The notes beneath the pieces are model-generated. The model worked only from the letters and a program-made list of their open reading frames with translations. It had not been told where the DNA came from and searched no databases. Positions 3,222 through 33,382 of a DNA stretch of 64,000 nucleotides are shown in pieces. The stretch comes from an uncultured Gammaproteobacteria bacterium (GTDB lineage Bacteria > Patescibacteriota > Microgenomatia > Woykebacterales > RBG-16-39-9b): NCBI GenBank assembly GCA_965231125.1, contig OZ246414.1:281512-345511 (forward strand). Direction: 5' to 3'. The position numbers and the translations under genes are program-made. Position 1 is the stretch's first letter. Every line of letters begins with the position of its first letter.

Positions 3222-4302
3222 TGGACAGTTGAGTAAAAAGGCACCTTCTCAAGTAAGGCCACTTTTGGCAATTGCCTTTTATTCTTTTAAAGCTCTTATC
3301 CGCAACCGAGCAACAGTCTTTTTTGGAATTGCCTTTCCCCTTTTTTTTATCACGGCCTTTGGTTTGATCGGAAATAACGCTTTAAGTATTTCTATCGGAG
3401 TGCCGACTTCTGATCAAAAAGGGGCAGTTTATCAAGCGCTTTCCAGCATCCAAGTTGTAAGTATTAAATCCGGAACCAGACAAGACCTTTTGGAAAAGTT
3501 GTCCCAAGGAGGCATATCCGCTGTTTTGACTGCAGATAAAGGGCAAACGGAACTTTTTGTGTCGCAATCTAACCCGCAAAACGCAGCTGCCGCCGAGGGT
3601 TTGGTGAACGGTGTTGTCGATAAACTTAATTTGCAACTATCCGGCGTAAAAAAACCGCGAGTTGTAGTTAATTTGCGGGAGGTTTCAGGAAGAAGCTATA
3701 AATACATCGACTTTTTCTTACCTGGAATGATTGGTTTTGCGCTTTTAACTACTTCAGTTACCAGTATTGCCTTTGGCTTAATTTTTCTTAAAAAGGCCTT
3801 GGTGCTAAAGAGACTTTTTGCCACACCAATTCGTTCCTACACAATCCTGTTTGGACAAGGCCTCGCGCGGCTATTGTTCGTTCTAATCCAGACTTTAGTG
3901 ATTGTCTTTGTTGGCGTTGTCGCTTTTAAATTCACATTAATCCATGGTGCCCTCACCCTTTTCTACATACTAATTCTTAGTGTAATTGGGCTTGTCTCTT
4001 TCTTAGGTTTTGGTATTTTTGTTGCCGGAGTGGCAAACGATGAAAATACAGTGGCGCCGGTTGCGAACCTTATCGTCTTGCCGCAGTTTCTTGTTGCCGG
4101 AACATTTTTTCCGGTGGACGCGTTGCCGGCATGGTTGCAACCAGAGGTCAAAGTGCTGCCGCTAGCCTTTTTTAACACGGCGATTAGAAAAGTGACGGTC
4201 GAGGGGCTTGGGTTTGGCCATCTTTTGCCTCAACTGGCTGGTCTTGCAGTTTGGGCAATCCTGGCCTACTTTCTTGCTTCTCGCACCTTCCGTTGGGAGT
4301 GA
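3214..4302 (+). CDS. ABC-2 family transporter permease
   Basis: About six predicted transmembrane helices. Overlaps the ATPase gene by 8 nt, the usual ABC-2 operon arrangement. Confidence 0.7.
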   Translation: MTNGQLSKKAPSQVRPLLAIAFYSFKALIRNRATVFFGIAFPLFFITAFGLIGNNALSISIGVPTSDQKGAVYQALSSIQVVSIKSGTRQDLLEKLSQGGISAVLTADKGQTELFVSQSNPQNAAAAEGLVNGVVDKLNLQLSGVKKPRVVVNLREVSGRSYKYIDFFLPGMIGFALLTTSVTSIAFGLIFLKKALVLKRLFATPIRSYTILFGQGLARLLFVLIQTLVIVFVGVVAFKFTLIHGALTLFYILILSVIGLVSFLGFGIFVAGVANDENTVAPVANLIVLPQFLVAGTFFPVDALPAWLQPEVKVLPLAFFNTAIRKVTVEGLGFGHLLPQLAGLAVWAILAYFLASRTFRWE

Positions 4303-4327
4303 TCAACATCTAGAAAGAGAGGGAGGA

Positions 4328-4891
4328 TTGGAACTTCTTTACCTGATCGACAGGACGATTACGCGTCTTATCCAGTGGGTATCAAAATTCCTGGAGAGGA
4401 GACTGCACCTTACAAAAACCGTCCAATATTTTATTATGCTTGGTCTAGTTTTGGTGGTTTATACTTTAACTGGACCAATCATAGACGAAAACAAAAAGTC
4501 TTTGGCCCTCTTACCAATTTATATGAGCCTTTGGTTTGGAATACACGTTCTAGCTGCGCTCTCCGAGAGGGTATTACGACGTTTGCATCTTTTCTTTGAT
4601 GAAGACGGTTGCGTCGGAGAAAAGGAATACGGTGATGGTTATCGGGCTTGGTCTTGGATAATCATTAGCGCAGGGTACTTGTTTCTGGCCTTCAGTCGAG
4701 TTCTTGTCGGGGGTTCCTATTCAGCGCTGGGAATCGGCTATTACGGCATATTAACTCAGGCAACTGCAGAATTTGCGAGCCGTAAGGGAAGTTCCCGTCC
4801 GAAGGACAAAAGTAGGGTCACGGAGGCTCTTCGCAAACTGCTCGAAAGGTGTCGCAGTTGGCTGCCCAAACCAGTGCCGGTACCAAGTTGA
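4328..4891 (+). CDS. Hypothetical membrane protein (start uncertain)
   Basis: The ORF is open from 4208 but overlaps the permease. A TTG at 4328 follows a good ribosome-binding site (AGAGGGAGGA); the alternative start is ATG 4436. Hydrophobic helices. Confidence 0.35.
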   Translation: MELLYLIDRTITRLIQWVSKFLERRLHLTKTVQYFIMLGLVLVVYTLTGPIIDENKKSLALLPIYMSLWFGIHVLAALSERVLRRLHLFFDEDGCVGEKEYGDGYRAWSWIIISAGYLFLAFSRVLVGGSYSALGIGYYGILTQATAEFASRKGSSRPKDKSRVTEALRKLLERCRSWLPKPVPVPS

Positions 4892-5655: not shown

Positions 5656-6291
5656 TTGGCTATGAAAATTTCAAAACACGCCCACTCCTGCCTACTAATT
5701 GAAGAGAGCGGTAAAAAAGTTCTTATTGACCCAGGAGTCTATTCTTACGAAGAAAAGGCTCTCAACCTCGGGTCCTTAGAAAGTCTTGACCTTCTTCTCA
5801 TCACTCACGAACACCCGGACCATTTTTATTTACCGGCGATTAAAGAAATTTTACAAAAATTTCCTGACATACGGATAGTTACAAACCCTTCGATTGTCGA
5901 GATTCTCAAAAAGGAAGGTATTGCTTCGACCAGCCAAGGGAACGATTTTGTACAAGTGGAAGAAGTTCCTCACGAGCATGTCTTTGGCATCCCCCAAATG
6001 CCGAAAAACGCGCTTTTCAAAGTTTTCGGTAAGCTTACCCATCCTGGCGATTCCCTTACTTTTAAACCTGAAACAGACGTTTTGGCGCTTCCAGTCCAAG
6101 CACCTTGGACAAGCCTCACTGAAGCAGCCGAGAAAGCGCTTTCTTGGAAACCCAAAGTAATAGTTCCAATTCACGATTGGCATTGGAGCGGCCCCGCCCG
6201 AGACTCATTCTACGAGCGGTTGGAAGGTTTCTTCAGTCAAAACGGAATTGAGTTTAAGGGCCTACAAACAGGCGAAGTAGTCGAAGTATAA
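5656..6291 (+). CDS. MBL-fold metallo-hydrolase
   Basis: HxHxDH motif (THEHPDHF) and downstream conserved H/D residues. Confidence 0.75.
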   Translation: MAMKISKHAHSCLLIEESGKKVLIDPGVYSYEEKALNLGSLESLDLLLITHEHPDHFYLPAIKEILQKFPDIRIVTNPSIVEILKKEGIASTSQGNDFVQVEEVPHEHVFGIPQMPKNALFKVFGKLTHPGDSLTFKPETDVLALPVQAPWTSLTEAAEKALSWKPKVIVPIHDWHWSGPARDSFYERLEGFFSQNGIEFKGLQTGEVVEV

Positions 6292-6356: not shown

Positions 6357-6539
6357 TCAAGATGGGAGGCCGGTGAGCCAGTTGAGGAAAGGTAAGCGGT
6401 GCTTTTCTATTGATAAATCTTCCAAGGCAATATTTTTCTTAGCCGTAAATTGAGAAATCATCTCAAAAGTGGCGGTTAGTTCCCTATTTAATACGTGGCC
6501 GTTATGAAAGTCAATAAAGTCAGCTACGTTTTCGATCAT
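6357..6539 (-). CDS. Small hypothetical protein, paralog of the gene at 8501-8692
   Basis: About 60 aa with a conserved C-terminus (AKKNIALEDLSIEKHRLPFLNWLTG). Differences from the paralog are mostly synonymous, which argues for real coding sequence. Confidence 0.5.
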   Translation of the reverse strand: MIENVADFIDFHNGHVLNRELTATFEMISQFTAKKNIALEDLSIEKHRLPFLNWLTGLPS

Positions 6540-6624
6540 TACCTTAAGTTTACTCCCATAATTCAAATAAGCAAGAGGCAGGAAAAATCTCAAGCGATAT
6601 TTTGTAACTTGCCAAGTGGTGGAT

Positions 6625-6653
6625 TGATTTTAGCCCTATAGTGTAGTATACTA
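6625..6653 (+). promoter_or_regulatory. Candidate sigma70 promoter for typA
   Basis: TTGATT, then a 17-nt spacer, then TATACT, about 55 nt upstream of the start. Confidence 0.3.
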
Positions 6654-6706
6654 TCTAAGTAGACTGGGTGTTTATCTTCCTTTATTAAAAAGAATAGAAA
6701 TTTAAT

Positions 6707-8491
6707 ATGAATAATATCAGAAACGTTGCTATCATTGCTCACGTCGATCACGGTAAGACCACTCTTGTCGATGCCTTGCTGCGACAAAGTAATACCAAGC
6801 TCCACAAAGATTTGGAGGGCACGAACCTAATAATGGATTCCAACGATCTTGAAAAAGAGCGCGGCATTACTATCTTTTCCAAAAACGCTTCGGTTGTTTG
6901 GAAGGGTACAAAGATAAATATCATTGATACCCCTGGGCATGCCGATTTTGGAGGAGAGGTCGAACGGGTCTTGAAAATGGCTGATGGGTGTCTACTGCTG
7001 GTTGACGCCAAGGAAGGCCCCATGCCGCAAACTCGTTTTGTCCTCAAAAGGGCTCTCGAACTCGGTCACAAAGTTGTGGTCGTTATAAACAAAGTGGACA
7101 AACCCGATGCTAGAGTCGAGTGGGTGGTGAATAAAACTTTTGATCTTTTCGTTGAACTTGGGGCCAGCGATGAGGCAGCTTTTTTCCCAATTGTTTACAC
7201 TTCAGCCAAAAAGGGATTGGCGGGAGTTGGGCCGGATTTAAATCAGATGAAAGATATCGCCCCAGTTTTTGAGGCAATCATCGAACACATCCCCGCCCCG
7301 ACCGGAGAAGCAAGTAAACCGTTGCAAATGTTGGTCACTACAATTCTCGGGGACAATTTTAAAGGACGGATCGCGACTTGTCGAATTTACAACGGTTCGA
7401 TAAAGTCCGGGCAGGAGGTTACTCATATAAACCGCGTCGGCGAAATGAAAAAAGTAAAGCTAACTGCCCTCATTGGCTTTTCCGGGTTGGATAAAATTGA
7501 TATTCTCGAGGCGGAAGCTGGAGACATTGTGGCGGTTGCCGGAATCGAAAATGTGAATATTGGTGAGACCATTGCTGATCCTAACGAAGCTGTCGCCTTA
7601 CCTCTTTTGGACATTGAAGAACCGACGATCAACATGACTTTTTCGGTAAACAGCTCTCCTTTTGCCGGAAAAGAAGGGCAGTTCAAGACTTCTCGGCAAA
7701 TTCGAGAGCGACTTTTCAAAGAACTCGAAACCGATATGGCTTTGAAGGTGGCAGATGGTGCAGACGGAGATTGGATTGTTTCTGGTCGAGGAGAACTACA
7801 TCTGGCTATTTTGATCGAAAGAATGCGTCGCGAAGGTTACGAATTTCAAGTGGCCCGGCCGCAAGTAATCACGAAAAAGATTAACGGCAGGACACTAGAG
7901 CCTTACGAAAAGGTTTTCATTGAGGCTCCGGAAGGCTATTCCGGGGTGATAATGCAAAAAATGGGAGAGCGCGGGGCTTTGTTGCAAGATATGAATACCG
8001 AAAATGGTGTTGTACAAGTAGAATTTATCATCCCAACCCGAAAACTATTTGGCTACCGTAGCGGGTTTCTTACCGACACCAAAGGGGAAGGTATTATCAA
8101 CACAGTGTTCCATGAATTTAGAGAAGATGCCGGTGGAATTTTTGAGAGAGGTCCTGGATCACTAGTTGCTTTTGAAGATGGTCCGACAACTTTGTATGGG
8201 TTAACCAATGCTCAAGAGCGTGGAACGCTCTTCCTAGGACCCGCTACCCCCGTCTACAAAGGCCAAGTTGTGGGACAGAATTCCCGGGGCGGAAATATTA
8301 AAGTGAATGTTTGCAAAGAAAAGCAACAGACCAACATGCGTTCTAGAGGCGAGGGAGTTGCAGAGCATTTCAATGCTCCCCAACCGATGGGTTTAGAGGA
8401 CGCCCTTGAATATATTGATGGTAGCGAGTTAGTAGAAATAACCCCGGAGAATATCCGAATCCGCAAAATCGATCTAAATTCTAAATATTAA
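6707..8491 (+). CDS. typA: Translational GTPase TypA/BipA
   Basis: Begins NIRNVAIIAHVDHGKTTLVDALL and carries the G1-G5 motifs, followed by EF-G-like domains. Length 594 aa. Confidence 0.95.
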   Translation: MNNIRNVAIIAHVDHGKTTLVDALLRQSNTKLHKDLEGTNLIMDSNDLEKERGITIFSKNASVVWKGTKINIIDTPGHADFGGEVERVLKMADGCLLLVDAKEGPMPQTRFVLKRALELGHKVVVVINKVDKPDARVEWVVNKTFDLFVELGASDEAAFFPIVYTSAKKGLAGVGPDLNQMKDIAPVFEAIIEHIPAPTGEASKPLQMLVTTILGDNFKGRIATCRIYNGSIKSGQEVTHINRVGEMKKVKLTALIGFSGLDKIDILEAEAGDIVAVAGIENVNIGETIADPNEAVALPLLDIEEPTINMTFSVNSSPFAGKEGQFKTSRQIRERLFKELETDMALKVADGADGDWIVSGRGELHLAILIERMRREGYEFQVARPQVITKKINGRTLEPYEKVFIEAPEGYSGVIMQKMGERGALLQDMNTENGVVQVEFIIPTRKLFGYRSGFLTDTKGEGIINTVFHEFREDAGGIFERGPGSLVAFEDGPTTLYGLTNAQERGTLFLGPATPVYKGQVVGQNSRGGNIKVNVCKEKQQTNMRSRGEGVAEHFNAPQPMGLEDALEYIDGSELVEITPENIRIRKIDLNSKY

Positions 8492-8500
8492 ACTAGCAGT

Positions 8501-8692
8501 TTAGATTTTTGAGCTGGAGAGTCCGGTGAGCCAGTTGATAAAAGGTAAGCGATGCTTCTCAATCGATAGATCTTCCAAAGCAATATTTTTCTTGGCTATA
8601 AAGCTAGAAATAGTTTCAAAACTTGCGTTTAATTCCGTATCTAATACGTGCTCGTTGTGGTAGGAGATAAATTCTTTTATATTTTGAGTCAC
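8501..8692 (-). CDS. Small hypothetical protein, paralog of the gene at 6357-6539
   Basis: 63 aa, ending in IEKHRLPFINWLTG, convergent with typA. About 75-80% nucleotide identity to the other copy. Confidence 0.5.
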   Translation of the reverse strand: MTQNIKEFISYHNEHVLDTELNASFETISSFIAKKNIALEDLSIEKHRLPFINWLTGLSSSKI

Positions 8693-8736
8693 GCCTTAAG
8701 TGTACTCCCCAAATCCAAATAAGCAATAGGCAGTTA

Positions 8737-8786
8737 AAACCCTCGCTTTTTGGATTCAAATCTGGTACAATCGTTTCCCTAAAATC
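8737..8786 (+). repeat. Conserved upstream module (AAACCnCGCTTTT..TCAA.T...CTAAAATC), copy 1
   Basis: Shares its core with elements at 10116-10193 and 10702-10782, and partly with 9596-9623. Lies about 40 nt upstream of the gene at 8827. Confidence 0.45.
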
Positions 8787-10115: not shown

Positions 10116-10193
10116 GCAAGATAAACCCGCTTTTAGACTCAATTTGTATAGTCCACGACTGTGGTTGCAGCATTCGTGAGAATGCTCTAAAAT
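10116..10193 (+). repeat. Conserved upstream module with hairpin AGCATTC-GTGA-GAATGCT, copy 2
   Basis: Paralog of 10702-10782. The stem covaries between copies (TC/GA versus CT/AG). Sits just upstream of the gene at 10213. Confidence 0.5.
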
Positions 10194-10212
10194 CAGCTAG
10201 AAACAAACCTCA

Positions 10213-10701: not shown

Positions 10702-10782
10702 AGCAAGATAAACCTCGCTTTTCAGCCTCAATTTTTGTAATCCAGGTAAGTGGTTGCAGCATCTGCCAAGATGCTATAAAAT
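10702..10782 (+). repeat. Conserved upstream module with hairpin AGCATCT-GCCA-AGATGCT, copy 3
   Basis: Same arrangement as 10116-10193, in front of the MazG-like gene. Confidence 0.5.
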
Positions 10783-10805
10783 CCATCCAACCTAGTTTTT
10801 TAGTT

Positions 10806-13196: not shown

Positions 13197-13358
13197 ATGG
13201 CCGATCCTGTAAGATGTCCTTATTGCAATAGCAGAGATTTATCCACGGTACCTGCCCCTTTTGGAGAGAGTGTACAAACAAGCTCCATCACCTACAAATG
13301 CCAAATATGTCACCGCAGCTTTAGTAAATCCTCTTCAGAAAAAAGTAAAGACGAATAA
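13197..13358 (+). CDS. Stand-alone IS1595/IS1-like transposase zinc-ribbon mini-protein (53 aa), paralog 1
   Basis: RCPYCNS...YKCQICHRSFS fits the pattern CPxCxS..(n)..YxCxxCxxxFS. About 80% nucleotide identity to 14649-14810. Confidence 0.5.
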   Translation: MADPVRCPYCNSRDLSTVPAPFGESVQTSSITYKCQICHRSFSKSSSEKSKDE

Positions 13359-13364
13359 AAATTT

Positions 13365-13404: not shown

Positions 13405-13797
13405 ATGAAAACTACTAGAATATTGATCTTGGAAGATGATTTAGAAACTCTTTCAGTCTTGCTCAGAAAGCTACATGAACTTGAAGAAGAGACAGCGTCG
13501 GTTATTTCTGTTGTGACTCTTTCTGAATACACTCAAGTAGAAGAATTTATCAATAACAAGAAGGACTTGGGCTTTGATATTGTTCTCCTCGATCGGGATT
13601 GCAAAGCTGGAGGATCCTTCCACACTCTAGAAATTGAAAAGTATGGTCCAGAGAAAATCATTTCAATTTCCTCGATCCCAGACTACAACCGGCAGGCGCA
13701 AGGACGCGGTGTCAAAAGAATTGTTTGGAAGGACTATCAAAACCTTGAAGATTTCTCTCTTAAAGTAATCGAAAACATTAAACAAATACTTAGCTAG
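13405..13797 (+). CDS. Stand-alone receiver (REC/CheY-like) domain protein
   Basis: ILILEDD...DIVLLDRD layout. Confidence 0.5.
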   Translation: MKTTRILILEDDLETLSVLLRKLHELEEETASVISVVTLSEYTQVEEFINNKKDLGFDIVLLDRDCKAGGSFHTLEIEKYGPEKIISISSIPDYNRQAQGRGVKRIVWKDYQNLEDFSLKVIENIKQILS

Positions 13798-13819
13798 TTT
13801 TTCTTGCTATAATTAAAGC

Positions 13820-14149
13820 ATGATATTGATAATAAGTGAAAAAGCTAGTAAAGAACAACTTGAACAAATGGCTCAGGACTTTGATGGTTTTATAAAAGTC
13901 GTTGTCGATATTGAAAAAGGAATATTGGCTGGAGGTGGGGAAAGGCACGTAGATGCAGAACAACTAATGCTCCAGGAAGGTTCAAAGCAAAGCGATCTTT
14001 GGGGTGGTGGTTTAGATTTGGAAACGAAAGATAGAGACTACAATTCTGTAATTAACCTTCGACCCAATCAAGACAACTCAAGTCGTGATATACTATCAAA
14101 AGAAATTAGAAAGCAGTTTGACGAAATTGTGAAGAAGCTACTACTCTAA
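13820..14149 (+). CDS. Hypothetical protein
   Basis: ORF of 109 aa, no domain recognised. Confidence 0.4.
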   Translation: MILIISEKASKEQLEQMAQDFDGFIKVVVDIEKGILAGGGERHVDAEQLMLQEGSKQSDLWGGGLDLETKDRDYNSVINLRPNQDNSSRDILSKEIRKQFDEIVKKLLL

Positions 14150-14157
14150 GAAACTTT

Positions 14158-14463
14158 ATGAACAAAAAAGAAAAAATTTTGGATATAGCGATGAATTTAA
14201 ATAGAGTTGGAAACTGGTTGTATGACGACCCGCAATCTAAAGGAAAAAGAATCAATAGTTTTTTGAGTAATACCAATTTGATTTTGGGTTCCTTACCCTC
14301 AAGCTCCTTTTCAACACCTTTCCGTACTACCTACGAGAAGTTTTTGGGTGACTATGGTCAGCTGAACAAACAGATTGAATCAGCCGATATTGACAACCAG
14401 TACTGGGGAGAGAAAGCAATGACTTGGGGAACTGTACTTACTCACCGCTCAAAATTAATTTGA
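14158..14463 (+). CDS. Hypothetical protein
   Basis: ORF of 101 aa. Confidence 0.35.
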   Translation: MNKKEKILDIAMNLNRVGNWLYDDPQSKGKRINSFLSNTNLILGSLPSSSFSTPFRTTYEKFLGDYGQLNKQIESADIDNQYWGEKAMTWGTVLTHRSKLI

Positions 14464-14648: not shown

Positions 14649-14810
14649 ATGCCAGACGAAATAAGATGCCCTTATTGCAATAGCAAAGATTTAGCCACTG
14701 TACCTACCCCTTTTGGAGAGAGCGTGCAAACAAACTCCACTACCTACAAATGCCAAATATGCCACCGCACTTTCAGCAAATCCTCCTCCGAAGAAAATAA
14801 GGAAGAATAG
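14649..14810 (+). CDS. Stand-alone IS1595/IS1-like transposase zinc-ribbon mini-protein (53 aa), paralog 2
   Basis: MPDEIRCPYCNSKDLATVPTPFGESVQTNSTTYKCQICHRTFS. The ORF-track start at 14613 is an upstream extension. Confidence 0.5.
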   Translation: MPDEIRCPYCNSKDLATVPTPFGESVQTNSTTYKCQICHRTFSKSSSEENKEE

Positions 14811-14852
14811 ATAATTGACATACGATAATACATATGTTAGTATGTACCTATT

Positions 14853-17014: not shown

Positions 17015-17689
17015 ATGACTAAACTATCCCGATCCAAACTGGAACTTCTTTTGGAATGCCCAAGGTGCTTTTGGCTTTATGCCGGTAAAAATATCGCCCG
17101 GCCTTTTGGCGCTCCGTACACGATTAATAACGCCATCGATTTCCTCCTGAAGCGCGAATTTGACGAGCATCGAAAAGCCGGTACCGCCCACTATTTAATT
17201 GAACGTGAAGGAATTGATGCCGTTCCCTATTTGCACGACAACATTAATAAATGGCGGGACACTTTCACTGGTGTTCAATATGAAGATAAGGATAATGATT
17301 TTTTAGTTTTTGGGGCAGTGGATGATGTTTGGGCCGATTCGAAAGGAAACTTAATCGTCGTGGATTATAAAGCTTCCGGAGCAAAGGAAGGCGAGCTTTA
17401 TGATTCGTACAAACGCCAAATGGAGATTTATCAGTGGTTACTCCGACAAAACGGTTTTAAGGTTCTCGACCGCGGCTACTTTGTTTACTGCCGGGTCAAT
17501 AAAGATGGCGGCTTTGCTGGTGGTCAACTCTCCTTCGATATAAAAGTTCAACCTTATGATGGTGATGATAGTTGGATTTCGGGAAAAATCAGGCAGGCCC
17601 GCAAAACCCTCGACGGCCCAATTCCAAAACCGGGCGAAGAGTGCATTTATTGTAATTATCGAGCCGCAGTTGAAAAAAATTCTAACTAA
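17015..17689 (+). CDS. PD-(D/E)xK nuclease family protein (Cas4/RecB-like, four Cys)
   Basis: N-terminal CPRC plus C-terminal CIYC, and VDDVWAD...IVVDYK, consistent with a Cas4-like nuclease carrying an Fe-S cluster. Confidence 0.6.
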   Translation: MTKLSRSKLELLLECPRCFWLYAGKNIARPFGAPYTINNAIDFLLKREFDEHRKAGTAHYLIEREGIDAVPYLHDNINKWRDTFTGVQYEDKDNDFLVFGAVDDVWADSKGNLIVVDYKASGAKEGELYDSYKRQMEIYQWLLRQNGFKVLDRGYFVYCRVNKDGGFAGGQLSFDIKVQPYDGDDSWISGKIRQARKTLDGPIPKPGEECIYCNYRAAVEKNSN

Positions 17690-30095: not shown

Positions 30096-30941
30096 GTGGT
30101 TATACGGACACCCCAAACTCTAATAGATCTGAGAGTCTTGGACCTGGTAGGCCCACCAATGGCAGGGCTTCCTGAAGAGGTGCTTAAGCATCATCTCAGG
30201 AATCTCGAGCCGATTCATTGGGCGATCGGAGAAGTCGCCAGAAGTATGAGACTGGGTGAAGTCGATCGCCAGCAACTCAGAATGGTCCTCCAAGGGATCA
30301 GACTGCCGGCTCCGACGATAGTTATCCCCGAAGCACAGCTTCCCGCAAACGACCCGCTCCGGCAAGTGTTCCCGACCGGCGGTTGGTACATGAAGTGCCC
30401 GCCCGGAATCGATCTGGTTCTGCTCCACCAGAGCGTCGGCCAGTTCGGGGCAGATGTGCGTTTCTACCGGCAGAACGATTCGGATCCGTGGTTTCTTAAG
30501 AGCTACGGAGAATGGTCGCCAGAGGGTAAGGGAAGTGAAGTGCAGCGGCTCACCACCCACTCGTGCCACCTCTTCATCCCAGACCCTTCGCAGTGGCTGT
30601 TCCCAGACAGCAAGGGCCTGCGTCGTGACGATTGCCTGCAGATGCAGCGCGAGTTCGAGAAGAAGTTGCCAGACGGTCGGACTTGTCCGGAACCGTCACT
30701 GGAGACTTTGGCTCTCGCGGCTTTCGAGTACCATCGGCAGCATCCGAGCCAGTGGCCACTTCGTGGCCCTAACTACGCCCGTTGCGCCAATCGCTTCGGC
30801 CGGGGTGGCTGGCTCGACGGTGGTGGCTTCGATCCGCGCGGTTTCGGCGTCAGCGGCTGGGGCGGGCTCGGCGGTGGCAATCTCGGTGCCTTGCGCTGGG
30901 TAGTGTGGTACGACGAAGAGGAGGCAGAGCAGGCCGCCTAG
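30096..30941 (+). CDS. DGR target (variable) protein; the C-terminal region carries the VR
   Basis: GTG start. Markedly GC-rich compared with the flanks. Its last ~40 codons (…GWLDGGGFDPRGFGVSGWGGLGGGNLGALRWVVW…) align to the TR with adenine-specific differences. Confidence 0.7.
   Translation: MVIRTPQTLIDLRVLDLVGPPMAGLPEEVLKHHLRNLEPIHWAIGEVARSMRLGEVDRQQLRMVLQGIRLPAPTIVIPEAQLPANDPLRQVFPTGGWYMKCPPGIDLVLLHQSVGQFGADVRFYRQNDSDPWFLKSYGEWSPEGKGSEVQRLTTHSCHLFIPDPSQWLFPDSKGLRRDDCLQMQREFEKKLPDGRTCPEPSLETLALAAFEYHRQHPSQWPLRGPNYARCANRFGRGGWLDGGGFDPRGFGVSGWGGLGGGNLGALRWVVWYDEEEAEQAA
30791..30906 (+). repeat. DGR variable region (VR)
   Basis: 116 bp, gapless alignment to the TR at 31759-31874 with 22 mismatches, all at TR adenines. 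The 3' 29 bp (CAATCTCGGTGCCTTGCGCTGGGTAGTGT) is identical and GC-rich, resembling an initiation-of-mutagenic-homing (IMH) element. Confidence 0.85.
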
Positions 30942-31758: not shown

Positions 31759-31874
31759 TCGCTACGGCCAGAGTAACTGGCTCAACGGTGGTAACTTCGA
31801 TCCGAACGGTTTCAACGTCAACAACTGGGACGAGAACGGCAATGACAATCTCGGTGCCTTGCGCTGGGTAGTGT
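31759..31874 (+). repeat. DGR template region (TR)
   Basis: Adenine-rich (28 A in 116 bp, many as AAC codons). 22 of those A positions are substituted in the VR. The ORF-track entry at 31727-31927 is an artefact of the TR. Confidence 0.85.
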
Positions 31875-31891: not shown

Positions 31892-32275
31892 CTAGGTGGT
31901 TTTGGCTTGTTTGATCCAGCCACCTAGCATCTTACCGATCTCTATTAAGAGATTCTCAAAAGAGAGATATTTTTGTTGATTGATTGCTCTAGTCTCAAAG
32001 GAGAGGCGCAATAGTATTTTTAAAACGTCCAGTTTGGCTGAGGCTCTTTCCAGGTAAACAAGTTTTTCGTTTTTACTCTTATAGCCTGCAAGTAGAACCA
32101 ATTCGAGAATTTCTAGGTTTAGGTCTGCACATTTTTGACCTACAGTGTAGCGATCTTGCCGAGGAAAATGTTTGAGAGCTTCGTGAAGGTTTTTATAAAA
32201 ATCGTAGGTCTTCTGAAATATGGGAATATCTAAATTACTTGAGTGGGGGGGGTCGAGTTGAAAACCTTTACTCAT
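31892..32275 (-). CDS. avd: DGR accessory variability determinant (Avd-like four-helix-bundle protein)
   Basis: 127 aa with the helix-pair pattern typical of four-helix-bundle proteins. Lies between the TR and the RT, on the opposite strand. Confidence 0.7.
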   Translation of the reverse strand: MSKGFQLDPPHSSNLDIPIFQKTYDFYKNLHEALKHFPRQDRYTVGQKCADLNLEILELVLLAGYKSKNEKLVYLERASAKLDVLKILLRLSFETRAINQQKYLSFENLLIEIGKMLGGWIKQAKTT

Positions 32276-33382
32276 CTTAGCTTTCTTAAGCGCCGAGCGC
32301 GTAGCGATCTATACAAGAAGGTTATCTCACTTCCCAATCTTTTTCAAGCTTGGGATGAGTTTAAGAAGGGGAAAAGAAAAAAGATTGATGTTGGAGAATT
32401 TGAGAGACATCTGGAAGACAATATTTTTGAACTGCGTCGGGAGTTGTTGACTAAAACCTACCGACACTCCTCTTACACCGGTTTTTACATTACCGATCCC
32501 AAAGTCCGCCATATCCACAAAGCGATTGTTCGCGACCGAATTGTTCACCACGCCCTATTCAAAGTTCTCAATCCCATCTTTGAACCTACTTTCATTTCTG
32601 ATTCTTTCTCTTGCCGAAAGGGATATGGAACTCATAAAGGATTTAAGAAGTTGGTTGTCTATGCCCGAAAAGTTAGCAAGAATTACACCCAAGATGGTTG
32701 GGCTTTAAAATGCGATGTAAAAAAGTTTTTTGACAGTGTTAATCATAAAGTTTTGCTAGAAATAATTAAAAGAAAGATTAAAGAAAAAGATCTGCTCTGG
32801 TTACTGGAAGAAATAGTTGGAAGTTTCTGCACTTGTCATTCTGAGGTAAAACCGAAGAATCTGAGATCCTTCGCTAATGCTCAGGATGACGATTATTGTA
32901 AAGGTATTCCCATTGGGAATCTGACTAGCCAACTCTTCGCCAACGTTTATCTTAATGAGCTAGACCAGTTTGTCAAAAACGAATTAAAGGCTAGATACTA
33001 TATCCGCTACGCTGATGATCTCCTTATCTTAATCGAAAACACAAAGGGTTTAGTCCAATATACTGGTATATTGGACAAGTTTCTTGAGGACAGGTTAAAA
33101 TTGGAACTGCATCCAAACAAAATTTCCTTGAGGAAACTGCCTTGGGGAGTCGATTTTGTTGGTTATATCGCTTTACCACATTATCAAGTTTTGAGAACCA
33201 AGACTAAAAGAAGAATTTATCGAAAGATTCGAGAAAGGATTTTTAGTTACAATGCAAAAAACATTAACTACGAATCCTTAAACCAATCCATCCAGTCTTA
33301 CTTGGGGATTTTGAAGCACGCTAATACACATAAGTTAGAACAGAATTTAAGAAATCAAATATATTTTTGGTTAACGGCTTAA
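32243..33382 (+). CDS. DGR reverse transcriptase
   Basis: RT motifs including the DGR-specific IGNLTSQLFANVYL (SQ in place of QG) and the YADD box (YIRYADDLLIL). About 375 aa with no maturase or endonuclease domain. The start is GTG 32243 or TTG 32258. Confidence 0.85.
   Translation: MGGVELKTFTHLSFLKRRARSDLYKKVISLPNLFQAWDEFKKGKRKKIDVGEFERHLEDNIFELRRELLTKTYRHSSYTGFYITDPKVRHIHKAIVRDRIVHHALFKVLNPIFEPTFISDSFSCRKGYGTHKGFKKLVVYARKVSKNYTQDGWALKCDVKKFFDSVNHKVLLEIIKRKIKEKDLLWLLEEIVGSFCTCHSEVKPKNLRSFANAQDDDYCKGIPIGNLTSQLFANVYLNELDQFVKNELKARYYIRYADDLLILIENTKGLVQYTGILDKFLEDRLKLELHPNKISLRKLPWGVDFVGYIALPHYQVLRTKTKRRIYRKIRERIFSYNAKNINYESLNQSIQSYLGILKHANTHKLEQNLRNQIYFWLTA

Follow-up and report, generated by a model that had tools for sequence, protein, structure and literature searches.

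The DNA analysed here, a 64 000 nucleotide (nt) stretch of contig OZ246414.1 (positions 281 512 to 345 511 of the forward strand; hereafter referred to as the window), carries typA (also known as bipA), encoding a translational GTPase, between two diverged copies of a small minus-strand gene, i.e. copy A at 6357–6539 and copy B at 8501–8692. Very probably, both copies are real paralogous genes, each with its own leaderless-type promoter, and the bracketing of typA is peculiar to the genome from which the window derives. According to this reading, A and B would be two functional paralogues of a family of cytoplasmic, acidic proteins of around 63 amino acids that are predicted to fold as a helical bundle, and each would be a transcription unit of its own, read from a conserved promoter that ends 6–7 nt before the ATG or GTG start codon. 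Copy B would hold the ancestral position convergent with typA, while copy A would be an old second copy located beside a gene for a metallo-β-lactamase (MBL)-fold protein.

The original prediction had described regions of about 75–80 % nucleotide identity on either side of typA, both encoding minus-strand small proteins that end in NWLTG, and both parts of this description were recovered. Using blastn across the whole window, 6366–6587 aligned with 8519–8739 at 77.0 % identity over 222 nt (one gap, E=1e-43), a repeat search of the window returned 6366–6532 and 8519–8685 as an ungapped pair with 77 % identity, and the slightly larger regions originally proposed, i.e. 6357–6600 and 8501–8740, showed a global identity of 73 %. 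The open reading frame (ORF) of copy A starts with ATG (6539–6537), stops with TGA (6359–6357) and encodes 60 amino acids ending in NWLTGLPS, and that of copy B runs from GTG (8692–8690) to TAA (8503–8501) and encodes 63 amino acids ending in NWLTGLSSSKI. The repeat unit corresponds exactly to the promoter plus the coding sequence, with similarity extending from around 13 nt upstream of the −35 hexamer to around codon 58, and the flanks of A and B share no similarity beyond it. No third copy was found within the 64 kb by blastn or tblastn. A protein identical to that of copy A (P0001) has been called in public assemblies, the copy B proteins are P0007/P0021, and each copy is unchanged across three independent samples.

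Both ORFs are intact at a synonymous divergence (dS) of about 1.1. With a non-synonymous divergence (dN) of 0.20 and a dS of 1.11, dN/dS was 0.18 between A and B by the Nei–Gojobori method (NG86), and only 0.04 in the C-terminal block. For 13 members of the family, i.e. A, B and members from 11 other loci, pairwise identity averaged 0.785, 0.854 and 0.524 at the first, second and third codon positions over the whole gene and 0.89, 0.96 and 0.57 in the invariant block, a pattern that is the signature expected of selection on the amino-acid sequence. An intact orthologue is furthermore present in 38 other lineages, i.e. homologues are not confined to pseudogene-like fragments. The dN/dS ratios that the original prediction had proposed to determine, the dominance of third-position variation and these orthologues therefore all bear out its view that A and B are real genes and not decaying repeats.

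It is very unlikely that the two repeats are instead non-functional duplicates or gene fragments in the course of decay, with ORFs that are incidental. Copy A would fit such a scenario in being three codons shorter and in carrying five residues that are unique to it within the family, among them I52L at a site that is invariant elsewhere, as would the annotation of the family solely as 'hypothetical'; but the intact ORFs at the given synonymous divergence, the low dN/dS ratios, the clear codon-position periodicity, the retention of both ORF and promoter in the 38 other lineages and the identity of the two copies in all three samples argue against it. The shortening is due to a TGA in copy A where copy B has TCA (Ser61), by which three non-conserved tail residues are lost. 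Together with the unique residues, this loss points to a relaxed or altered evolution of copy A, with the gene itself being intact.

The least probable of all explanations considered is that the conserved unit represents a structured non-coding RNA or a cis-regulatory element, such as a leader or a small RNA flanking typA. While the upstream non-coding block and some third codon positions are indeed conserved, no match to Rfam was obtained at E≤1, the consensus over 14 members was essentially unstructured (RNAalifold; −2.8 kcal/mol, 10 pairs, 2 of them compensatory), and the substitutions follow a 3 nt periodicity with conservation of the amino-acid sequence. The stretch upstream of the ATG or GTG codon is considered to be non-coding because homologues have 6, 7 or 9 nt between promoter and start, i.e. 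a spacing that differs by 1–3 nt, and copy B has an in-frame TAA two codons ahead of its start. Two longer readings were rejected as promoter read-through, i.e. a 78 amino-acid reading of copy A from a TTG codon (6357–6593) and the 84 amino-acid database entry P0018, the LAYLN of which equals CTTGCTTATTTGAAT.

The promoter-proximal sequence, already described as conserved in the original prediction, turned out to be shared not only by A and B but family-wide. The block of copy A, TTGCTTATTTGAATTATGGGAGTAAACT (6547–6574, minus strand), consists of the −35 hexamer TTGCTT (6574–6569), a 16 nt spacer and the −10 hexamer TAAACT (6552–6547), and that of copy B, TTGCTTATTTGGATTTGGGGAGTACACT (8699–8726, minus strand), has its −35 hexamer at 8726–8721 and TACACT as −10 hexamer at 8704–8699. 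From the −10 hexamer to the start codon there are 7 nt in A (ATG) and 6 nt in B (GTG). Among the 39 lineages examined, 38 possess a block of the form TTGCTTAT-N14-TAnAnT that ends 6–9 nt ahead of the start; the −35 hexamer is TTGCTT in 35 of these 38, followed by an N16 spacer and TAnAnT as −10 hexamer, which ends 6–7 nt ahead of the start codon in 32 of them. When the 38 lineages were anchored on the promoter motif, the information content amounted to 1.91 bits per nt in the −35 hexamer, 1.21 in the 16 nt spacer and 1.48 in the −10 hexamer, compared to 0.19 in the positions 10–25 nt further upstream. In the 0.45 Mb of DNA covered, the block was found 62 times, in 61 cases preceding a family member; in the window, it is present solely at A and B, compared to 0.2 occurrences expected by chance. 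Since it is kept even where the gene is located only around 53–71 nt downstream of a helicase gene, the small gene appears always to be its own transcription unit. Judged by its sequence, the conserved upstream block is a gene-specific sigma-70-type promoter, TTGCTT-N16-TAnAnT.

In sigma-70 promoters, a −10 hexamer ending 6–7 nt before the start codon places the transcription start site at the start codon or one base before it. Given this spacing, transcription of the small gene would start with the start codon itself or with the base preceding it, and the mRNA would be leaderless or have a leader of 1 nt. No Shine–Dalgarno (SD) site is present 5–10 nt before the start in A, B or the family consensus; GGAG-like bases are found around 13 nt before the start in the family consensus and around 16–17 nt before it in A and B, and AAGG precedes the start by 1–2 nt in A and B and by as much as around 4 nt in other members. 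Leaderless bacterial genes have been described in Actinobacteria and Deinococcus–Thermus, with the −10 hexamer directly upstream of the start. The family resembles these genes in the position of its −10 hexamer, in having no SD site at a usable distance and in the onset of conservation, which is just ahead of the −35 hexamer. Unlike them, it has a spacer that is far more conserved than a plain promoter needs, with ATTT following the −35 hexamer and GGnG preceding the −10 hexamer, and more than half of its members start with GTG. This conserved spacer could be an operator, or else an SD-like element for another transcript.

Other genes of the window were also inspected for such signals. In a crude scan, an SD core preceded only 23 of the 75 long ORFs, and five other ORFs, e.g. 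those at 5656–6291, 13405–13797 and 17015–17689 (all plus strand), are preceded by TTGNNN-N16-18-TANNNT ending 5–9 nt before the start. The low SD usage and these five ORFs with leaderless spacing make leaderless initiation plausible in this organism, in which leaderless genes may be common.

The relatives of A and B constitute a narrow orphan family that is apparently restricted to Candidatus Woykebacteria, a member of the candidate phyla radiation (CPR). A word-indexed search yielded 17 clusters at 90 % identity, all with 58–63 amino acids and with no names other than Woykebacteria hypothetical proteins, and the family is represented by 9 loci in GTDB species representatives and 46 loci in JGI metagenomes. 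Besides the window, these fall into 38 lineages at 95 % nucleotide identity, all on Woykebacteria or Patescibacteria-type contigs. The sensitive profile search suggested in the original prediction, performed exhaustively against 1.84 billion cluster representatives, retrieved three clusters, all belonging to the family itself; a match to a eukaryotic KLPFINW repeat protein was dismissed as chance. The earlier statement that no function is recognizable also stands: several members scanned against Pfam and NCBIfam had no match at E≤10, PADLOC gave no match, PHROGs gave insignificant matches only, and the family profile matched none of the PDB sequences at E≤10. A viral origin is unsupported, as no relatives were found in IMG/VR, and literature searches on Woykebacteria and on leaderless genes in the CPR returned nothing on the family. 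Three Woykebacteria hypothetical proteins, i.e. A2Z24_01625 (Ca. Woykebacteria bacterium RBG_16_44_10), A2172_03470 and A2Z11_01050, belong to the same family (62–78 % amino-acid identity), are equal in length to A and B and share both the invariant KNIALEDLSIEKHRLPFINW block and the promoter block. In the DNA covered, their genomes harbour one copy each, whereas the window genome harbours two.

The typA gene itself (6707–8491, plus strand; 594 amino acids) forms the ORF between the two copies and lies outside the repeat. The Pfam domains GTP_EFTU, EFG_C and BipA_C are on record for a gene identical to it, and it is 81–85 % identical to the typA genes at the loci L009, L016, L020, L027, L052 and L059. 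Copy A, placed between a gene for an MBL-fold hydrolase and the typA promoter, is divergent from typA with 167 nt between the start codons, and copy B is convergent with it with 9 nt between the stop codons. A putative typA promoter, TTGATT-17-TATACT (6624–6652, plus strand; a consensus match only), is divergent from that of copy A, the −35 hexamer of which is 50 nt away, and its −10 region ATAGTGTnnTATAnT (6636–6652) aligned with the typA upstream regions of L009, L016, L027 and L059, to which it is common. In relatives, the typA leader has around 90 nt and contains an AAGAATA-tttt-TATTCTT hairpin; the leader in the window is shorter and different.

The original prediction had raised the question of whether homologues always flank typA, and they do not. 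Within the ±4–6 kb inspected around each family locus, every other lineage has a single copy, and A and B are the only members from the 915 kb contig of the window genome in the list of 90 % clusters. The position of copy B, i.e. convergent at the 3′ end of typA, recurs in 4 of the 38 lineages (L009, L016, L020 and L052), in which 21–755 nt part the small gene from typA, these inserts including a VapBC pair in L009 and a 183 amino-acid gene in L016. In 13 of the 38 lineages, the small gene directly adjoins a DEAD-box helicase gene that is orthologous throughout, being located upstream of it on the same strand in seven of them and around 53–71 nt downstream in six. The typA gene is found within 2.3 kb of the small gene in six lineages (6/38), and the gene order in L027 is typA, helicase, small gene. 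BipA and DeaD are functionally linked in the assembly of the Escherichia coli 50S subunit at low temperature (PMC8313970), and the small gene recalls such cold-adaptive assembly factors of the BipA/TypA and DeaD type by the frequency with which it adjoins the helicase or lies near typA. However, this likeness is one of gene neighbourhood within a narrow clade, and in no case does the small gene form an operon with either gene, being preceded by a promoter of its own throughout.

The same neighbourhoods yielded several additional observations. Upstream of the helicase gene in L004 (6200–6550), L007, L017 and L064 (2300–2510) there is a conserved promoter-like sequence, CGATAGTATTTGCTTTT...TGTGTTAWACT, followed by a conserved spacer of 200–350 nt, which may be a long regulatory 5′ untranslated region. 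By eye, toxin–antitoxin (TA)-like pairs were noticed near the small gene or typA in relatives, i.e. VapBC-like pairs in L009 (5258–5900) and L016 (8036–8670), a Doc/Phd-like pair in L011 (1822–2474) and a DUF4258/DUF2283-like pair in L014 (4431–4911), and the repeated insertion of such pairs points to a region prone to rearrangement. The contigs of L010, L011, L013 and L014 carry the family together with Woykebacteria-like genes for EF-Tu, EF-G and the DEAD-box helicase and a MazG-like gene, while the bins to which they were assigned bear the labels Gammaproteobacteria, WWE3 and Nanoarchaeia; these odd labels probably result from mis-binning or mislabelling.

Regarding the origin of the two copies, A and B have diverged almost to saturation at synonymous sites (proportion of synonymous differences, pS, 0.59; dS about 1.15). 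Between species, pS was mostly 0.70–1.0 for the small gene, with three comparisons involving A at 0.56–0.63, and 0.73–0.79 for typA. A and B were sisters in 30 % of bootstraps in a neighbour-joining analysis of 13 taxa. With 40 taxa, B paired with L018 (78 % bootstrap) within a clade that also comprised the typA-convergent genes of L009, L016 and L020, had 65 % support and excluded A, L052 being placed outside; A grouped loosely with L035 (42 %), the gene of which also abuts an orthologue of the MBL-fold gene neighbouring A. The single copies of L021, L037 and L040 are placed next to other genes from the block left of A. Single copies of the family thus use both A-type and B-type sites in other genomes, so that both sites are normal ones and both happen to be filled in the window genome. 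Copy B is best regarded as the syntenic orthologue at the ancestral position of its clade and copy A as an old, diverged extra copy, from which it follows that the bracketing of typA would be a lineage-specific juxtaposition peculiar to the window genome and not a typA-linked module. A recent tandem duplication of typA together with the small gene is not supported, given the low frequency of an A plus B pairing, the exclusion of A from the clade of B and the unlike flanks. The second copy would have arisen either by an old duplication with loss elsewhere or by lateral gain from another Woykebacterium, between which the signal contained in 180 nt cannot distinguish. As to the idea that a helicase gene was deleted beside A, the helicase gene of this genome is located elsewhere, and no family remnant is found beside it.

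The layout also invites a different reading, namely that the two repeats delimit a cassette which carried typA and was mobile or prone to recombination, or that the small gene is itself a mobile, defence or TA gene or encodes the precursor of a ribosomally synthesized and post-translationally modified peptide (RiPP). Direct repeats do bracket a single gene, the contexts of the family are variable and often near VapBC-, DUF4258/DUF2283- and Doc-type modules, and the last nine residues of the proteins vary, with many Ser, Thr and Cys residues among them. Nevertheless, we consider this highly improbable. The repeat is exactly promoter plus coding sequence and is accompanied by neither a transposase nor an integrase nor terminal inverted repeats, an identity of 77 % makes a poor recombination substrate, and single copies are found at the same two positions in other genomes. 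Nothing in IMG/VR, PADLOC or PHROGs supports a mobile or defence gene, and a TA or RiPP gene is contradicted by neighbours that vary, with no conserved partner gene or maturation enzyme and no modifying enzymes in any family neighbourhood inspected. Pfam and NCBIfam gave no match whatsoever and hence none of the Nif11 type, and a comparison with a Nif11-type leader by hhalign, in itself a weak test, yielded a probability of 0.2 %. Finally, the variable tail is absent from A and several other members.

With A and B taken as functional paralogues, the family can be characterized further by its protein. The signature consists of the invariant residues N4, F8, I9, H12, N13, K35–R48 (KNIALEDLSIEKHR), F51 and W54, all of which are present in both A and B; the L52 of copy A replaces the otherwise invariant I52. 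The proteins are acidic, with isoelectric points (pI) of 5.4 for A and 5.8 for B and a family median of 5.7. AlphaFold2 combined with the family alignment confidently predicted a small helical bundle (predicted local distance difference test score, pLDDT, 89.5; predicted template modelling score, pTM, 0.76) with main helices at 3–14, 25–34 and 44–62, the third of which begins with the near-invariant stretch LSIEKHRLPFINW. The single-sequence AlphaFold2 model of A was all-helical with another topology (pLDDT 73.8) and uninformative. Foldseek found nothing similar to the predicted bundle at E≤0.001, the weak matches being mixed with many unrelated helical bundles.

Considering that the family recurs beside a DEAD-box RNA helicase or typA, which is the sole basis of this suggestion, we tentatively propose that the protein may act in processes related to RNA or the ribosome, as a small adaptor or regulator that binds protein or RNA. 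The main rival to this guess, which we deem less probable and rather doubtful, is a small helix–turn–helix (HTH)-like DNA-binding regulator that represses its own promoter via the conserved spacer and, in the window genome, might have an effect on the divergent promoter of typA as well, at a distance of 50 nt. The weak and mixed fold matches argue against such a regulator, as do the failure to obtain any HTH profile match in Pfam or NCBIfam at E≤10 or any PDB sequence match, the acidic nature of the family, the link of nine residues between helices 2 and 3 in the model, which is longer than a classic HTH turn, and the spacer, in which no clear palindrome was seen by inspection. Likewise, small tri-helical HTH domains, such as the N-terminal domain of the Stl repressor (8p8o) or those of the MerR/TnrA/GlnR type, show no sequence-profile similarity to the family, which differs from them by its acidity and by the long linker before the last helix, and the scores obtained lie within the range reached by any small helical bundle.

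Returning to the adaptor, it is tempting to speculate on a more specific role, although this is more doubtful still: the family could represent a Woykebacteria-specific accessory factor of cold-adaptive ribosome assembly or RNA remodelling, i.e. an acidic adaptor for the helicase, TypA/BipA or pre-50S particles that is made from a leaderless mRNA, with the spacer as a regulatory site and with A and B being sub-functionalized. In E. coli, leaderless mRNAs are favoured in translation at low temperature.

Several points have to be weighed against the reading of A and B as functional paralogues with leaderless expression and a role near the helicase and TypA. The GGAG-like and AAGG bases ahead of the start may indicate a short-leader or an alternative transcript, and GTG, the start codon in 23 of the 38 members, works poorly as a leaderless start in E. 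coli, while being accepted in mycobacteria. Copy A, given its five unique substitutions and the truncation by three residues, could be drifting. In addition, neither a family member nor a remnant of one adjoins the helicase gene of the window genome (P0095, L064), and the neighbourhood signal may reflect inheritance in a narrow clade with partly conserved synteny, and not functional coupling. Since typA is 81–85 % identical among these genomes, i.e. they are fairly close relatives, since DUF5674 and MazG-like genes likewise recur as parts of a wider syntenic block, and since the helicase is located elsewhere in the window genome, the functional link is a hint only.

Apart from the typA region, the window contains other repeats. 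Two repeats of 116 nt, 30791–30906 and 31759–31874, differ at 22 positions, all of which have A in the second and G, T or C in the first. The variable repeat is located at the 3′ end of a 281 amino-acid ORF (30096–30941, plus strand), and beside the template repeat there are a 127 amino-acid ORF (31892–32275, minus strand) and a 379 amino-acid ORF (32243–33382, plus strand), which by eye resemble an Avd-type helical protein and a reverse transcriptase, respectively. By this template-/variable-repeat signature, the repeats and ORFs look like a diversity-generating retroelement. A second pair of diverged direct repeats, 13210–13364 and 14662–14816 (85 % identical), encodes the C-termini of zinc-ribbon-looking small proteins (CPYCNS...YKCQICHR) and flanks a three-gene block (13405–14463) that includes a DUF5674 homologue; in L018, a homologue of these zinc-ribbon-like small proteins (4263–4541) is convergent to the family member. 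Finally, 10131–10194 and 10720–10783 form a direct repeat of 64 nt with 75 % identity (repeat family D4).

Overall, A and B represent a duplicated member of a lineage-specific small-protein family and not a new kind of genetic system, which is a sound but modest conclusion. Two short ORFs that a gene caller might well miss very probably are genuine genes under selection, a result that is of value mainly for annotation, and a lineage-restricted small-protein family with a recognizable promoter signature has been defined. As far as sequence is concerned, the family furthermore makes a clean case for leaderless expression in a CPR bacterium, where promoter and initiation signals are poorly known. 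If the neighbourhood with the helicase and TypA does reflect function, the family would open up a way of studying ribosome biogenesis in organisms whose ribosomes are reduced.

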